From assembly GCA_934121925.1 (NCBI GenBank), contig CAKOVK010000004.1, positions 1,899 through 65,898 of the forward strand: 64,000 bases of DNA. The letters are read 5' to 3'. Below the pieces are notes generated by a model. The model made no database searches, was not told the DNA's origin, and was given only the letters and a program-made list of their open reading frames with translations. Position numbers and translations under genes: made by a program. Positions 10,785 through 15,552 of this stretch are shown here, one piece after another. Positions within the stretch are counted from its first letter, which is position 1, and each line of letters opens with the position of its first letter. The DNA comes from an uncultured Clostridia bacterium (GTDB lineage Bacteria; Bacillota; Clostridia; TANB77; CAG-508).

Positions 10785-11435
10785 ATGGATTTAAATTACT
10801 TTATTAAATTAATGAAAATATTATTGGATGGAACAAAAGTATCTTTAAGAATATTTGCTATAACACTAATATTTGCAATACCTTTAGGAATATTAGTTTC
10901 TGCTTTAAGTATTTCTAAGAACAAGATAATTTCAAAAATAATAAAGCTGTATATATTGCTTATGAGAGGAACCCCATTATTATTGCAAATAATCTGTATA
11001 TACTTTGCGCCATATTATTTGTTTAAATTTTCATACAACAGATTTATAGCAGTAATTATTGCATTTACATTAAACTATGCAGCATATTTTGGAGAAATAT
11101 TTAGAGGTGGAATAGAAAGCATTCCAAAAGGCCAATGGGAGGTTGCTTTTACATTAGGCTTTACTAAAATAAAAACATTTTTTATAGTGATACTTCCTCA
11201 AGCAATAAAAAGAATATTACCATCAATTTCAAATGAAGTAATAACTTTGGTAAGAGATACTTCGCTAGCACAAGTAATTGGAGTGACAGAATTGTTTGCT
11301 TTTGCTCAAAAACAAGCTAATTATAAGTTTTCTATAATTCCATTGCTTGTTGCAGGATTAATCTATTTATTAATTAGTGTAATTTTAACCTATATTTTTA
11401 ATTACACAGAAAGGAAATTAGAGTATTATAGGTAA
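10785..11435 (+). CDS. amino-acid ABC transporter permease (HisM/GlnP type)
   Basis: 216 aa, multi-TM, EAA-like loop (FTLGFTKIKTFFIVILPQAIKRILP). Confidence 0.85.
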   Translation: MDLNYFIKLMKILLDGTKVSLRIFAITLIFAIPLGILVSALSISKNKIISKIIKLYILLMRGTPLLLQIICIYFAPYYLFKFSYNRFIAVIIAFTLNYAAYFGEIFRGGIESIPKGQWEVAFTLGFTKIKTFFIVILPQAIKRILPSISNEVITLVRDTSLAQVIGVTELFAFAQKQANYKFSIIPLLVAGLIYLLISVILTYIFNYTERKLEYYR

Positions 11436-11440
11436 ATATT

Positions 11441-12097
11441 ATGAAAGTATTAGAAATAAAAAATATAAACAAGAGCTTTAACGAAAGAAAGGTATTAAGC
11501 AATTTTTCGCTAAATATTGAAGAAGGAGAAATAGTTTCGATAATAGGGCCATCAGGAGTTGGAAAGTCAACTTTATTAAGATGCATTAATGGTTTGGAAA
11601 AAATAGATAGTGGAGAAATCTTAATTAATAATAAAAGTTTAAAAAGAAAAAAAGATAAAATATCAAAAGAAGCAAATTTAGAAGTGGGATTAGTGTTTCA
11701 AGACTACAATTTATTTCCTCAGTATTCTGTGATTAAAAATATAACATTACCATTAACAACAGTACTAAAAATAGAAAAAGAAGAAGCAACAAAACAAGCA
11801 GAAGAATTACTTAAAAAAATGAATTTATTAGAAAAGCGATATTCATATCCATACGAGTTATCAGGAGGAGAAAGACAACGAGTAGCAATAGCAAGAACGA
11901 TTGCTACAAATCCTAAAATAATATGTTTTGATGAACCAACTAGTGCATTAGATCCAAAACTTGTAATGCAAGTTTCGAAAACAATAAAAGACCTTGCAAA
12001 TATTGGCAAAGCAATAATAATAGTAACTCACGATATAAGCTTTGCAGAACAAATTTCAGACAGGATTATAGAAGTAAAACTGGAATTTGTAAAATGA
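11441..12097 (+). CDS. amino-acid ABC transporter ATP-binding protein
   Basis: Walker A GPSGVGKST, signature LSGGERQR, Walker B IICFDEPTSALD. Confidence 0.92.
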   Translation: MKVLEIKNINKSFNERKVLSNFSLNIEEGEIVSIIGPSGVGKSTLLRCINGLEKIDSGEILINNKSLKRKKDKISKEANLEVGLVFQDYNLFPQYSVIKNITLPLTTVLKIEKEEATKQAEELLKKMNLLEKRYSYPYELSGGERQRVAIARTIATNPKIICFDEPTSALDPKLVMQVSKTIKDLANIGKAIIIVTHDISFAEQISDRIIEVKLEFVK

Positions 12098-12133
12098 ATG
12101 TGAGAGGTGTGATGTGGGAAGTAGGATTTGTAG

Positions 12134-12281
12134 GGGCGTATTGAATACGCCCAAAAAAGAATTTATTGCAAACTCTACAGCAGAGATTAACTAAAAATGT
12201 TGGGGCAGGCCCTGTGTCTGCCCGAAAAAATGATATTTTGTTATATACAAAAACCAGAACGAATGGGGACAGCCCCCTTTT
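12134..12281. repeat. cluster of three GC-rich hairpins in a 300-bp non-coding gap
   Basis: GGGCGTAT-TGA-ATACGCCC (12134-12152, A-run after). GGGCAG-N9-CTGCCC (12203-12223, A-run after). GGGGACAGCCCC (12265-12276, T-run after). Together they create the spurious 84-aa antisense ORF 12066-12320. Confidence 0.6.
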
Positions 12282-12448
12282 GTCAAATAAGAGAGAAACA
12301 ACCTTAAATGAAAAATTCAATAAATTGCATTAAAAATGTTTTAATATAAAAATAATATGTTATAATATTACTAATAATGAAAAGAAATATAATAAATTTG
12401 TACATCAGAATATTCTTTTCAATGTTATTAAAGGAGGAAAAATAAAAT

Positions 12449-12598
12449 ATGAAAAATATTGTATTATATGTGATTTGCTGTTGTATTTAGAGCTCTACCT
12501 AATTTGTAGGTATGAGTTTTATTATACATACCTGCAAATCAATATATAATACAAATTTTATATATAGAGTTATGCAGGTATATGCATAACTTTTTTTG
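12449..12598 (+). promoter_or_regulatory. cysteine leader-peptide attenuator (MKNIVLYVICCCI) upstream of cysK
   Basis: SD AAAGGAGG, ATG 12449, TGC-TGT-TGT at 12476-12484, stop 12488-12490. Segment 1 TTTGTAGGTATG (12503-14) pairs with segment 2 CATACCTGCAAA (12527-38). Segment 2 alternatively pairs with segment 3 TGCAGGTAT (12573-81). Segments 3:4 form the terminator AGTTATGCA-GGTATA-TGCATAACT plus T7 (12568-12598). Confidence 0.72.
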
Positions 12599-12685
12599 TT
12601 GAACAGAAAAACAAGAGAAAAGTTGACTTTTGGGGTAGCATAAAATGAAAAATTGAATAAATTAAAACAAGGAGGATATTTGAGT

Positions 12686-13639
12686 ATGAAAGTAGGAAAT
12701 ACACCATTAATAAAGATTAAGTATAAATATAATAACAAGGAAAAATACGTTTATTCCAAATTAGAATCATATAATTTGACAGGAAGTATAAAGGATAGGG
12801 TGGCTTATTATATTATAAAATCGGCATATGAAAACAAAAAATTAGAAAAAGGAAAAGAAATAGTAGAAGCAACAAGTGGAAATACTGGCATTGCATTAGC
12901 AGCTATGGGAGCCTTCTTTGGAAATCCTGTTCATATATTTATGCCAGATTGGGTAAGTAAAGAAAGAGTAGATCTAATGAAAATGTATAATGCAAAGATA
13001 ACATTAATATCTAAAGAAGAAGGTGGATTTAAAAAGGCAATATCCGAAGCTATTAAATATGCAAATGAAAATAATGCTTTTTTAAGTAATCAATTTGAAA
13101 ACGAAGATAATGTGTTAGCACATTATGAAACTACAGGAAAGGAAATAGTAGAAAAATTAAAAAGTAATATAGGGGGATTTGTTTCAGGGATAGGTACTGG
13201 AGGAACTTTAATGGGAGTTGCAAAAAGATTAAAAGAAGAAAATAAAGAAGTAAAAATTTATGCACTAGAACCAGATAAAATGCCTTTACTATCAAAAAAC
13301 GAAATTATAGATAACCATAAAATAGAAGGAATAGGAGATGATTTTATTCCTAAAATAGTAGATAAAGAAAAAATTGATAAAGTTATTTTAATAAATGATG
13401 AAGATGCTATAAATATGTCAAGAAAAATAGCAACAGAATTAGGAATTGGAGTCGGAATATCATCTGGAGCCAATATGATTGCAAGTGTACTTGCAAAAGA
13501 AGAAAATGAAGGAAATATAGTTACAGTATTTCCAGATGATAACAAAAAATACTTATCAACAGAATTGAGCAAGCCAATAGATAAAAATGAAGAATTTATA
13601 TCTAATAAAATTGAATTATTAGATTATGAATTTATATAA
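12686..13639 (+). CDS. cysK: cysteine synthase A (O-acetylserine sulfhydrylase)
   Basis: ATG 12686 after AAGGAGG. PLP-lysine motif TGSIKDR, plus SGNTGIALA and GTGGT loops. Confidence 0.9.
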   Translation: MKVGNTPLIKIKYKYNNKEKYVYSKLESYNLTGSIKDRVAYYIIKSAYENKKLEKGKEIVEATSGNTGIALAAMGAFFGNPVHIFMPDWVSKERVDLMKMYNAKITLISKEEGGFKKAISEAIKYANENNAFLSNQFENEDNVLAHYETTGKEIVEKLKSNIGGFVSGIGTGGTLMGVAKRLKEENKEVKIYALEPDKMPLLSKNEIIDNHKIEGIGDDFIPKIVDKEKIDKVILINDEDAINMSRKIATELGIGVGISSGANMIASVLAKEENEGNIVTVFPDDNKKYLSTELSKPIDKNEEFISNKIELLDYEFI

Positions 13640-13643
13640 ATAA

Positions 13644-13845
13644 TTGACAATATAAAAAGATTTTCATATAATTATATTATAAAGGAGACAAAACCATGAG
13701 TAATTTAACAAATGCAAAATTAAATAACTGGTGGAATGTATGGGATAAAAATCACCCATACAAATTTGTCGTGCTTTAAAATATTAGTAAAATACAGGCA
13801 CATGTATGAGTGATTAAAAACTTGTACATGTGCTTTTTGTTGTTT
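13644..13845 (+). promoter_or_regulatory. promoter plus tryptophan leader-peptide attenuator (27-codon ORF with WWNVW) upstream of trpB
   Basis: TTGACA 13644-49, 17-nt spacer, TATAAT 13667-72. SD AAAGGAG. ORF 13696-13779 encodes MSNLTNAKLNNWWNVWDKNHPYKFVVL, with TGG at 13729, 13732 and 13741. Candidate antiterminator CACCCATACA (13753-62) pairs with TGTATGAGTG (13803-12). Terminator GCACATGTA-N18-TACATGTGC plus TTTTT (13798-13845). Confidence 0.72.
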
Positions 13846-13925
13846 ATGGGAGGTGGTGCATATGGAAGCTGACTGGCATTGGCAAATCTTATATAAAATT
13901 ATTTTAAAGAAAGAAGGAATTGATT

Positions 13926-15068
13926 ATGAATTATGGAGAGTTTGGTGGACAATATGTACCACAAGAATTAAAAGAGAAATTAAATGAAATTGAAAAAGAA
14001 TTTACAAAAGCAAAAAATGATGAAAAGTTCGTAAAGGAATATTTATACTATTTAAAACAATATGTTGGAAGACCAACACCACTATATTATGCAGAAAACT
14101 TAAGTAAATATGCAGGTGGGGCAAAGATATATTTAAAAAGAGAAGATTTAAATCATACAGGAGCACACAAAATAAACAATGCATTGGGGCAAGTTTTACT
14201 TGCAAAACGTATGAATAAAACACACATAATTGCAGAAACGGGAGCAGGCCAACATGGAGTTGCAACTGCAACAGTGTGTAGTTTATTTAATATTAAATGC
14301 ACAATATTTATGGGGAAAGAAGATATAAAAAGACAAGAAGTAAATGTAGAGAAAATGAAACTTTTAGGAGCAGAAGTTTATGAAGTAACAAAAGGTGAAG
14401 GAACATTAAAAGAAGCAGTAGATGAATCCTTTGAATATCTATTAAAACATCAAGATGTATTTTACTTAATAGGTTCTGCAGTGGGCCCAAGCCCATATCC
14501 AGAAATGGTAAAATATTTTCAAAAAATAATAGGAGAAGAAGCAAAAAAACAAATTTTAGAAAAAGAAGACAAATTACCTAAAGCAATAGTTGCGTGTATA
14601 GGTGGAGGAAGCAATAGTATAGGGCTATTTACAGACTTTATAAAAGAAGAGGTACAAATATTTGGAATAGAGGGAGCAGGAAAAGGCATAAAAACAGGAA
14701 AACATGCATCTGCAATATATAACAATAAAATTGGAATTTTACATGGAATGAAAACATATATAATGCAAGATGATAAAGGAAACATAGAAGAGGCGTATTC
14801 AATTTCAGCAGGTTTGGATTATCCAGGAATTGGACCAGAACACGCATACTTGAAATCTATAAGAAGAGTTAAGTATGACAGCATTACAGATAAAGAAGCA
14901 GTAGAAGCATTTAAGCTACTTTGTAGATTAGAAGGAATAATACCAGCATTAGAAAGTAGCCATGCAATAGCATATGCAATAAAAATTGCAAAAAACTATA
15001 AAAATAATGACAGCATTATTGTAAACCTATCTGGAAGAGGAGATAAGGATATAGAAATAATAAACTGA
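13926..15068 (+). CDS. trpB: tryptophan synthase beta chain (stand-alone, no trpA nearby)
   Basis: HTGAHKINN (PLP lysine), [19 protein letters not shown] motifs. ATG 13926. Confidence 0.92.
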
Positions 15069-15099
15069 GGGAAAAAGGGGGCTGTCCCCTTTTTCCCTC
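15067..15099. terminator. GC-core hairpin terminator GAGGGAAAAAGGGG-GCTGT-CCCCTTTTTCCCTC
   Basis: Perfect 14-bp stem overlapping the trpB stop. Near-identical copy at 18646-18678. Confidence 0.85.
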
Positions 15100-15101
15100 T
15101 A

Positions 15102-15408
15102 TTGACAAATCGCAATTTTTATGGTATTAATATTAATATATTTTAAAAGCAATGAAGAGGAATAGTATATATTTATGAACTTTTAGAGAAGAGTTGGTTG
15201 GTGAAAAACTTTAAGGAACTAAATATAGAACCAGCCTTGGAGCTATGGACTGAAAATTAAAGTAAGTTTTATCGGAAATCCACCGTTATCATAGGATATA
15301 ATGTTATAAGACATTATTTGAGTGTAGAAGAAATTCTAAAAATAGGTGGTAACACGGATAAAAATATTCGCCCTAAGTTAATAAATATAACTTAGGGCTT
15401 TTGTATTT
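15102..15408 (+). promoter_or_regulatory. promoter plus T-box leader (Pro specifier CCA) of proS
   Basis: TTGACA 15102-07, 17-nt spacer, TATTAA. Stem I elements AGTA and AGAGAAGAGTTGGTTGGTGAAAA. Candidate specifier GAA-CCA-G (CCA 15231-33). T-box sequence AGGTGGTAACACGG (15344-57). Terminator GCCCTAAG-N13-CTTAGGGC plus TTTT (15370-15403). Confidence 0.82.
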
Positions 15409-15505
15409 TATATACTAGGAAATTTCTCATTTCCTAGTATATAAAAAATACTATAATCGCTAATGCTTTTGAGATTTCCTCATTTCATTCGGAAACTCAA
15501 ATCGG
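15409..15505 (+). repeat. palindromic repeat element copy 1 (35-nt core plus ~60-nt tail)
   Basis: Core TATATACTAGGAAAT-TTCTC-ATTTCCTAGTATATA at 15409-15443. The tail 15444-15505 is about 78% identical to the reverse complement of 39298-39357. Confidence 0.8.
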
Positions 15506-15552
15506 CGAAAACAAAGGGCGACTAAAGTTGCTTTGTTATAGGAGGAATTAAA

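Follow-up and report, generated by a model that had tools for sequence, protein, structure and literature searches.

Classical attenuators such as Escherichia coli trpL combine tryptophan (Trp) codons of a short leader open reading frame (ORF), placed over RNA region 1, with mutually exclusive 1:2, 2:3, and 3:4 helices and an intrinsic terminator, and the position of the ribosome decides the outcome. Trp leader-peptide attenuators of this kind have been predicted in Corynebacterium and Streptomyces, both Actinobacteria (PMC1262725), whereas T-box RNAs and TRAP are the usual regulators of Firmicute trp genes. The initial annotation of the DNA described here had drawn the same line, and it was broadly right; leader-peptide attenuation per se is known in Firmicutes, however, since the yfmH-yfmG attenuator of Bacillus subtilis has experimental support (PMC7491331). 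In a second described system, that of rtpA in the B. subtilis group, synthesis of AT (anti-TRAP) is presented, in the part of PMC10327191 that cites Chen and Yanofsky 2003 and 2004, as subject to translational regulation by tRNA-dependent ribosome stalling. Here, we analyzed a 64,000-nucleotide stretch of the genome of an uncultured Clostridia bacterium (contig CAKOVK010000004.1; hereafter, the window), in which a Trp-codon leader ORF (LP1), a second Trp-codon upstream ORF (uORF2), and a stand-alone trpB gene stand in a row. We consider it likely that the three form a self-contained unit that turns on trpB, for the salvage of indole, at low levels of charged tRNA-Trp, by way of two ribosome-based sensors in series.

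The first sensor consists of the following parts, in window coordinates:

13644–13672, plus strand: sigma-70-type promoter TTGACA-17-TATAAT, matching the consensus at 12 of 12 positions
13682–13687, plus strand: Shine-Dalgarno (SD) sequence AAGGAG of LP1, kept together with the ATG across the 39-sequence alignment described below
13696–13779, plus strand: LP1 leader ORF of 27 codons, MSNLTNAKLNNWWNVWDKNHPYKFVVL, with ATG at 13696 and TAA at 13777–13779
13737–13744, plus strand: region 1, UGUAUGGG, including Trp codon 16, with its partner CCCAUACA at 13755–13762
13750–13762, plus strand: region 2, AAUCACCCAUACA, with region 1 or region 3 as alternative partners
13771–13776, plus strand: possible extra antiterminator helix X (GUGCUU) in the last LP1 codons, pairing with 13796–13801
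13796–13845, plus strand: intrinsic terminator, with stem 13796–13811 paired to 13820–13835, loop GAUUAAAA, and T-run 13834–13845
13803–13815, plus strand: region 3, UGUAUGAGUGAUU, common to the antiterminator and the 5' arm of the terminator

Transcription is predicted to start at about 13679–13680, some 16 nt 5' of LP1, from the sole perfect promoter within 12000–16000; a promoter-like TTGAC..TATAAT occupies the equivalent position in most orthologous leaders. LP1 carries Trp at codons 12 (13729–13731), 13 (13732–13734), and 16 (13741–13743). Region 2 can pair back to region 1, forming a hairpin of −10.3 kcal/mol (13737–13744 with 13755–13762), or forward to region 3, forming an antiterminator of 12 pairs and one A·C mismatch (13750–13762 with 13803–13815). 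The latter is the minimum-energy fold of an RNA that ends at region 3 (−16.1 kcal/mol, z = −3.4). In the full leader, the minimum-energy fold (z = −7.3) holds the 1:2 hairpin together with the terminator, whose hairpin (13796–13835; 14 to 16 pairs, −21.5 kcal/mol, z = −8.3) is directly followed by the T-rich stretch CTTTTTGTTGTTT. Helix X would in addition sequester the 5' arm of the terminator at its base. All three helices of a classical attenuator (1:2, 2:3, and 3:4) are represented in the leader: the antiterminator excludes the terminator, the anti-antiterminator overlaps regulatory codon 16, and an intrinsic terminator lies between the LP1 ORF and the structural gene trpB.

A leader-peptide attenuator had been proposed for this site in the initial annotation, and its anatomy stood up well. 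The consensus promoter, the SD sequence, and the 27-codon Trp-rich ORF are all present where it had placed them, as are the strong terminator and T-run, although the 9-bp stem that it gave to the terminator turned out to be the perfect core of the longer stem; the pairing that it saw between CACCCATACA (13753–13762) and TGTATGAGTG (13803–13812) is real, contains the A·C mismatch, and extends to the full 2:3 helix. To these our analysis added the 1:2 anti-antiterminator hairpin, the second Trp-codon uORF, and the finding that some relatives carry, in the corresponding place, a T-box with a UGG specifier. Resemblance to E. coli trpL is one of design, as no sequence or Rfam relationship was found (no match to RF00513), making the element an analogue and not a member of that family. 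Unlike trpL, it belongs to a low-GC Firmicute, its target is a single trpB without trpA instead of a biosynthetic operon, its conserved Trp codons are arranged as W-x-x-W and not as a tandem pair, and a second Trp-codon uORF follows. The yfmH-yfmG attenuator likewise has anti-antiterminator and antiterminator hairpins that overlap its ORF, but it senses many amino acids without a Trp-codon logic and is unrelated to LP1 in sequence.

Conservation of the element was followed by searching with TrpB through one genome from each of 185,579 species, which returned 69 loci, labelled L001 onward. An LP1 homologue was present in about 40 of the 69, and the whole element is kept in about 45 related genomes. 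The closest relative is Clostridium sp. CAG:452 (TrpB 97% identical); relatives of at least 72% identity are nearly all metagenome-assembled, come from the guts of humans, rodents, chickens, and ruminants, and are labelled Clostridia, Bacilli, or Erysipelotrichaceae. Three contigs with a Firmicute-type trpB (L005, L029, and L037) were binned as Muribaculaceae, Alistipes finegoldii, and Bacteroidaceae, which is probably mis-binning and not transfer. Pairing was counted on a MAFFT alignment of 39 distinct leaders (TrpB 72 to 97% identical) for helices defined in window coordinates, with slid helices and 500 shuffles as controls. The 1:2 helix was paired in 94% of cells, with 2 of 8 pairs showing compensatory change (slid controls, 25 to 58% paired); the 2:3 antiterminator in 89%, with 7 of 13 pairs and 42 cells compensatory (21 to 45%); and the 3:4 terminator in 96%, with 12 of 16 pairs compensatory (19 to 71%). 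For none of the three did any of the 500 shuffles match the observed percentage paired or the covariation score. Support for helix X was modest (82.5% paired, two-sided change in 4 of 6 pairs, covariation score reached by 27 of 500 shuffles). Single leaders show how the helices change in step: regions 2 and 3 go from CAC/GUG to the coordinated UAC/GUA in L010 and take a different GC-rich version in L034, and in L022 AAUCCAUGCA pairs with UGUAUGGAUU, with matching changes in region 1 and in the terminator's 3' arm.

The peptide is conserved as well, with the consensus M-x-N-[L/F]-x-N-x-K-L-N-N-[W/M/L/I/R/N]-W-x-V-W-x-K-N-x-[P/S]-Y-x-F-V-V-L. The initial annotation had made its reading depend on conservation of the Trp codons, and TGG codons 13 and 16 proved invariant across the 39 distinct leaders (codon 12 is TGG in 26 of 39 and otherwise M, L, I, R, or N). 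Every sequence-level feature of a leader-peptide attenuator is thus present and evolutionarily maintained, which supports that interpretation. The alternative helices taken alone could serve a switch operated by a ligand or a protein, and T-boxes do occur at this position in relatives; the short ORF might on that account be incidental to a riboswitch-like, protein-binding, or tRNA-binding RNA (a degenerate T-box or a TRAP site, for example) that controls the terminator without translation. This we regard as very improbable. The SD, ATG, and reading frame of LP1 are conserved in the 39 distinct leaders. Codon 16 lies within region 1, but codon 13 is outside every helix, so RNA pairing does not explain its invariance. 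Spacing is held, too: the first base of codon 13 lies 18 nt from the start of region 2 in nearly all leaders, and the LP1 stop codon is fixed 15 nt past the end of region 2 in 28 of 39. That a stop should follow region 2, as it does in most orthologues, is unlike E. coli trpL, which is resembled instead by four leaders whose stop comes early, inside region 2 or between it and region 1. No Rfam family matched 13640–13925 at E values up to 10, RF00513 included; the window leader has no Stem I, specifier loop, or T-box sequence (RF00230 matched only the proS leader in the window), and a permissive scan of 11000–17000 plus a gathering-threshold scan of the whole window returned only the proS T-box and one tRNA. 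TRAP sites consist of 9 to 11 (G/U)AG repeats at 2- to 3-nt spacing, and no run of three or more such repeats was found in 13640–13930.

A DNA pattern scan of the same 185,579 genomes for the Trp codon followed by regions 1, 2, and 3 gave 48 matches: 34 true ones and 14 unrelated chance matches, roughly the number expected. Among the true matches, 31 precede trpB of this clade, one lies at a contig end, one (L108) precedes a trpB pseudogene, and one (L097) stands where trpB has been deleted. As all of them, the contig end aside, stand before that trpB or its remnants, the element is specific to this trpA-less trpB clade. In L097 (~2900–3400), the LP1 and uORF2 leader is intact and an apparently frameshifted trpS-like gene comes next; in L108 (reverse strand, ~1300–1800), trpB is reduced to a fragment behind the leader. 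Two genomes hold two trpB paralogues, each with LP1 and uORF2 (L008 and L013 in the metagenome-assembled genome [MAG] RGIG2998; L009 and L019 in MAG SIG349), and in L013 the LP1 stop follows directly after Trp codon 16. In L006 (~1880–1940), the terminator sequence of the trpB attenuator (GCACAUGUAUGAGUGAU...ACAUGUG U-run) recurs 5' of the cysK-like gene without a leader ORF.

In the window itself, a cysK-like gene (12686–13639) lies upstream of the leader, and no other terminator stands between its stop (13639) and trpB. The hairpin could accordingly be read as the mere terminator of that gene, with the promoter and ORF unrelated to trpB control. We find this scarcely credible: cysK is upstream in only 3 of the 69 loci while the leader travels with trpB in about 40, and neither the promoter-terminator-gene order nor a covarying competing helix is expected of a plain gene-end terminator. 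The same count of 3 in 69 led us to reject cysK as a part of the trpB unit.

Seven loci of the same clade (L018, L023, L029, L037, L040, L043, and L063) carry a T-box in place of LP1. Those of L040 and L063 exceed the Rfam gathering threshold, the other five score 84 to 89 bits (E ~1e-17), and all seven have GAA-UGG-A at the specifier position; L060 retains only a truncated T-box remnant. On a rough neighbor-joining (NJ) tree of TrpB, used solely to show interleaving, some T-box loci are basal and some are nested among leader-peptide loci, from which it follows that the two modules were exchanged at least once. The T-box of these relatives shares position, gene, and presumed signal with LP1; LP1 differs in needing a ribosome, where the T-box binds the tRNA directly. 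By their placement, the two look interchangeable as sensors of tRNA-Trp charging, and the exchange with a T-box(UGG) before the same gene gives independent support to a response of LP1 to that signal. About 300 nt 5' of trpB in L018, L023, L029, and L037, a second antiterminator/terminator copy follows the T-box, the two lying ~40 nt apart; the duplicated part (AGGUGGCAUAGCAAGA...CUCUUGUCC...U-run) is present twice, its second occurrence lacking a separate Stem I.

Behind the terminator come the second Trp-codon ORF and trpB:

13848–13858, plus strand: very strong SD of uORF2, GGGAGGUGGUG (AAAGGAGGUG in most orthologues)
13862–13987, plus strand: uORF2, 41 codons, MEADWHWQILYK... (MEADWHW...)
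13913–13917, plus strand: SD of trpB (AAGGA), inside uORF2, in a conserved AAGAAAGAAGGA block
13926–15068, plus strand: stand-alone trpB, 380 amino acids, TIGR00263 at 597 bits
15067–15099, reported by the scan on the minus strand: terminator-like GC-rich hairpin right behind trpB, ending the unit

That trpB stands alone had been claimed in the initial annotation and holds for the whole clade: no trpA was found within 3 kb of the gene. In distant TrpB matches (54 to 63% identity; Bacillus, Staphylococcus, Lachnospiraceae, and others), trpA is directly downstream wherever 3 kb of downstream sequence was available, and the stand-alone genes form one group on the rough NJ tree. The trpB product most likely makes Trp from environmental indole and serine. 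TrpB contains no Trp residue and could consequently be translated during complete Trp starvation.

The Trp codons of uORF2 are codons 5 (13874–13876) and 7 (13880–13882), and the ORF crosses the SD and ATG (13926) of trpB in the −1 frame to stop 61 nt inside the gene. Conservation was counted over 36 distinct sequences sharing one register; ten variant loci, with W at 5 only, at 5 and 6, or at 6 and 8, or with a divergent start, were excluded. The resulting pattern, M-E-x-[D/E]-W-x-W, shows three-base periodic variability: codon 1 is ATG in 35 sequences and GTG in one, codon 2 is mostly GAA or GAG, codon 3 is free, codon 4 is GAN, its third base being entirely free, TGG is invariant at codons 5 and 7, codon 6 is NAY, and from codon 8 on there is no conservation. 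The distance between the ATG of uORF2 and that of trpB takes twelve values, all in the same frame (55, 58, 61, 64, 70, 73, 76, 79, 82, 85, ~100, and ~106 nt). Since insertions and deletions in multiples of three are the mark of translated sequence, uORF2 appears to be translated. RNA structure was rejected as the cause of its conservation, given the periodic variability and z = +0.78 for 13836–13960. Two long proteins examined as candidate uORF2-TrpB fusions (P0011 and P0022) were dismissed as a clustering artifact and a read-through at the stop. uORF2 occurs behind LP1 and T-box leaders alike (L023, L040, and L063; a divergent short ORF in L043).

By its Trp codons, its own strong SD, and its place between a presumably Trp-responsive attenuator and the regulated gene, uORF2 has the design of rtpLP, the leader ORF of rtpA. 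The rtpA loci of 17 Bacillus species (L118 to L134) show a T-box (120 bits in L118) and terminator, then GGAGGUG, 6 to 8 nt, and the ATG of a leader ORF that opens with M-[D/E]-[D/E/S]-[G/D]-W. The opening is MDDGWWC in L118, L119, L121, L123, and L125 (B. stercoris, B. inaquosorum, B. tequilensis, B. spizizenii, and a Bacillus isolate) and MESDW in B. velezensis and B. siamensis, the latter identical to the opening of several uORF2 copies. Located 50 to 110 nt 5' of rtpA, these leader ORFs have one to three Trp codons and differ widely apart from a constant M-[D/E]-x-[G/D]-W opening and GGAGGUG SD; the one in L121 is in frame with rtpA. About half stop 14 to 23 nt before the rtpA ATG, by its SD, and most of the others run out of frame into rtpA.

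The parallels with the B. subtilis group extend to the whole arrangement. In both, two sensors of tRNA-Trp charging would act in series, first on transcription and then on translation; the rtpA leader and uORF2 share the GGAGGUG SD, the M-[E/D]-x-[D/G]-W opening, a place right after the attenuator terminator, and, in several Bacillus species, out-of-frame read-through into the downstream gene. Relatives of the window have exactly T-box(UGG) plus uORF2, as Bacillus has T-box(Trp) plus rtpLP. They differ in that the rtpA system regulates anti-TRAP and the unit in the window trpB, with a leader-peptide attenuator in place of the T-box, and in where the second ORF ends: just short of the rtpA SD in L118 and L119 (B. 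stercoris and a close relative), but at +61 for uORF2, which passes both the SD and ATG of trpB. The shared features make uORF2 a close analogue of rtpLP at the least; it is possibly a homologue, although five residues are too few to prove homology. Chen and Yanofsky reportedly found the ribosome-binding site of rtpA to be blocked once rtpLP has been fully translated and to be freed by stalling at the Trp codons of rtpLP.

From these parts a working scheme can be assembled. Sequence and covariation establish the anatomy of the first sensor, and we infer its response to Trp from them. A ribosome covers ~12 to 15 nt on each side of its decoding center, the footprint assumed here. When Trp is scarce, a ribosome stalled at LP1 codons 12/13 or 16 would cover region 1 (13737–13744), leaving region 2 (13750–13762) to pair with region 3 (13803–13815) once the latter has been made; this pairing would block the terminator, and RNA polymerase would read on. 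When charged tRNA-Trp is plentiful, the ribosome would reach the stop at 13777, where, placed between regions 2 and 3, it would occupy helix X and either cover or abut region 2, so that the 3:4 terminator could form and transcription end at the T-run. If LP1 were not translated at all, 1:2 would form and 3:4 would terminate.

uORF2 probably adds a layer of translational control. Read-through transcripts would load ribosomes at its very strong SD, and with sufficient Trp the heavy traffic in the −1 frame over the weaker SD and start of trpB would hinder initiation there. With Trp in short supply, a single ribosome stalled at uORF2 codon 5 or 7 would also cover the uORF2 start, preventing a queue; it would end ~30 nt before the trpB ATG, leaving the trpB site clear even with the shortest spacer of 55 nt, and the Trp-free TrpB could be made during starvation. 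The −1 frame is the only one that neither fuses uORF2 to TrpB nor stops at the ATGA overlapping the trpB start, a stop that would favor coupling of the wrong polarity.

Several observations weigh against this scheme. For the first sensor, the terminator (−21.5 kcal/mol) beats the antiterminator (−16.1 kcal/mol) at equilibrium, which means that the switch must be kinetic and operate during transcription, as in other attenuators. LP1 has only two conserved Trp codons, which are not adjacent, with codon 12 variable, and its peptide is kept beyond them (K-L-N-N precedes them, with synonymous changes) in a way that a hungry-codon model does not need. For the second, uORF2 is in frame with trpB in five loci (L013, L019, L065, L029, and L037), it stops 20 to 46 nt before trpB in four, and two T-box loci lack it, so that the occlusion mechanism is not universal. 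The comparative data also come from a single clade of mostly metagenome-assembled genomes.

The frame and stop data bear on whether uORF2 senses Trp at all. An in-frame uORF2 would add a 20-residue N-terminal extension to TrpB, as seen in the second paralogue copies L013 and L019, and the stop ranges widely relative to trpB (−46 to +79), lying next to the SD only in L023 (−20). With the LP1 attenuator real, uORF2 might then have some other role, as an enhancer, in mRNA protection, or as the remnant of a TrpB extension, or it might be a source of TrpB through a +1 frameshift at UUA-UGG just inside trpB, where the overlap holds three more TGG codons (LWRVWW) and a +1 shift would enter the trpB frame. 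We hold this to be unlikely, though the strongest of the rivals considered. The overlap TGG codons are forced by TrpB Y-G-E-F-G-G in an AT-rich genome, and trpB has its own SD and an ATG at the usual TrpB N terminus. Trp codons 5 and 7 are invariant in the 36 distinct sequences while their neighbors vary freely, and they keep a fixed distance from the uORF2 start codon and a variable one from trpB. The same SD and an M-E/D-x-D/G-W opening precede Bacillus rtpA, for which PMC10327191, in the part concerned with AT synthesis, reports tRNA-Trp-dependent stalling. A Trp-sensing role of uORF2 fits these data better.

The conservation of LP1 beyond its Trp codons raises a different alternative, in which LP1, and perhaps uORF2, would cause arrest through its specific peptide sequence, as TnaC of the E. 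coli tryptophanase operon does, the nascent chain and free Trp or indole together stalling the ribosome. TnaC, like LP1, is a short Trp-containing leader before the gene of an indole/Trp-converting enzyme; it senses free Trp through its nascent chain, stalls at its own stop codon, and blocks Rho. The idea accords with the persistence of K-L-N-N-W-W-x-V-W in LP1 despite synonymous changes (TTA/TTG/CTT; AAT/AAC) and of M-E-x-[D/E]-W in uORF2, where the third base of the D/E codon is free, with the same opening in Bacillus rtpA leader ORFs, and with the physiological sense that indole induction of trpB would make. RNA regions 1 and 2 explain part of this conservation, however, and the stall sites that would give antitermination coincide with the Trp codons. 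LP1 also differs from TnaC in its covarying antiterminator and in its terminator, which is intrinsic and not of the Rho type as in tna; neither LP1 nor uORF2 matched a Pfam or NCBIfam family, leader and arrest-peptide families included; and a tRNA-Trp T-box at the same place in relatives points to tRNA charging as the signal. Taken together, an arrest peptide seems quite improbable to us. A combined form, in which the L-N-N-W-W-x-V-W nascent chain of LP1 and the M-E-x-D-W chain of uORF2 join in the sensing, by arrest with free Trp or indole or by a +1 shift at UUA-UGG that starvation induces and that leads from uORF2 into trpB, is a long shot of the same order; if true, nascent-chain sensing would give gut bacteria that salvage indole a Gram-positive counterpart to control of the TnaC type. 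Sensing of tRNA-Trp charging by hungry codons remains our preferred account of both ORFs.

The surroundings of the unit include an amino acid ABC transporter and the cysK-like gene upstream of trpB and the following further elements:

~12358–12366: extended −10 TGTTATAAT of a candidate leader with cysteine (Cys) codons, which has the SD AAAGGAGGA
12449–12490: Cys leader ORF, 13 codons, MKNIVLYVICCCI, with three consecutive Cys codons
15143–15378: T-box leader before proS (15553–17241), specifier GAA-CCA-G, 114 bits

The organism has, side by side, a T-box for proS and a leader peptide for trpB. The Cys leader (12358–12600), 5' of the cysK-like gene, is itself a candidate leader-peptide attenuator: its alternative helices are chained (TACCUA/UAGGUA, AGGUAUG/CAUACCU, and AUACCUGCA/UGCAGGUAU) and end in a terminator at 12566–12593, and its fold has z = −8.6. 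In L011 and L109, the Cys leader peptide differs (MLKEYISINCCCTN) with the three Cys codons and the helix logic kept, and in L002 the Cys leader ORF is deleted. With this candidate before the cysK-like gene, the lineage seems to use leader-peptide attenuation more than once. Chance is a poor explanation of LP1. In the window (27.5% G+C), Trp makes up 0.65% of residues in long ORFs, giving a probability of ~6e-4 for at least 3 Trp in 26 codons. A scan of both strands of the entire 64 kb for SD-preceded ORFs of 6 to 45 codons enriched for one amino acid returned four: LP1, uORF2, the Cys leader, and an antisense MCCCMEH ORF (54645–54668) that was dismissed as an artifact inside a 663-codon gene on the opposite strand.

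A literature search, whose coverage was incomplete so that an earlier description is possible, found neither a Trp leader peptide before a Firmicute trpB nor uORF2, and a search of a plasmid collection with 12600–15600 returned nothing beyond a 76% trpB fragment of no relevance. In mechanism, the parts of the system are all known; what is new is the host lineage, the gene targeted, the presence of a leader-peptide attenuator where a T-box stands before the same gene in relatives, and two ribosome-based Trp sensors in series. Annotation has passed both ORFs by: LP1 was absent from the protein collection in an exact look-up, and the uORF2 product is given by gene callers on hundreds of contigs only as "hypothetical protein."

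Together, these findings extend classical Trp leader-peptide attenuation to Firmicute trp genes and widen the range of the rtpLP design beyond the anti-TRAP operon. The exchange of T-box and leader peptide within one gene lineage, with an rtpLP-like second sensor kept both ways, is a case of natural modular swapping of RNA-based regulators. For the hosts, which are uncultured AT-rich gut bacteria, double control by Trp supply suggests that the gut indole pool is used only at Trp shortage, which bears on indole and Trp flux in the microbiome.

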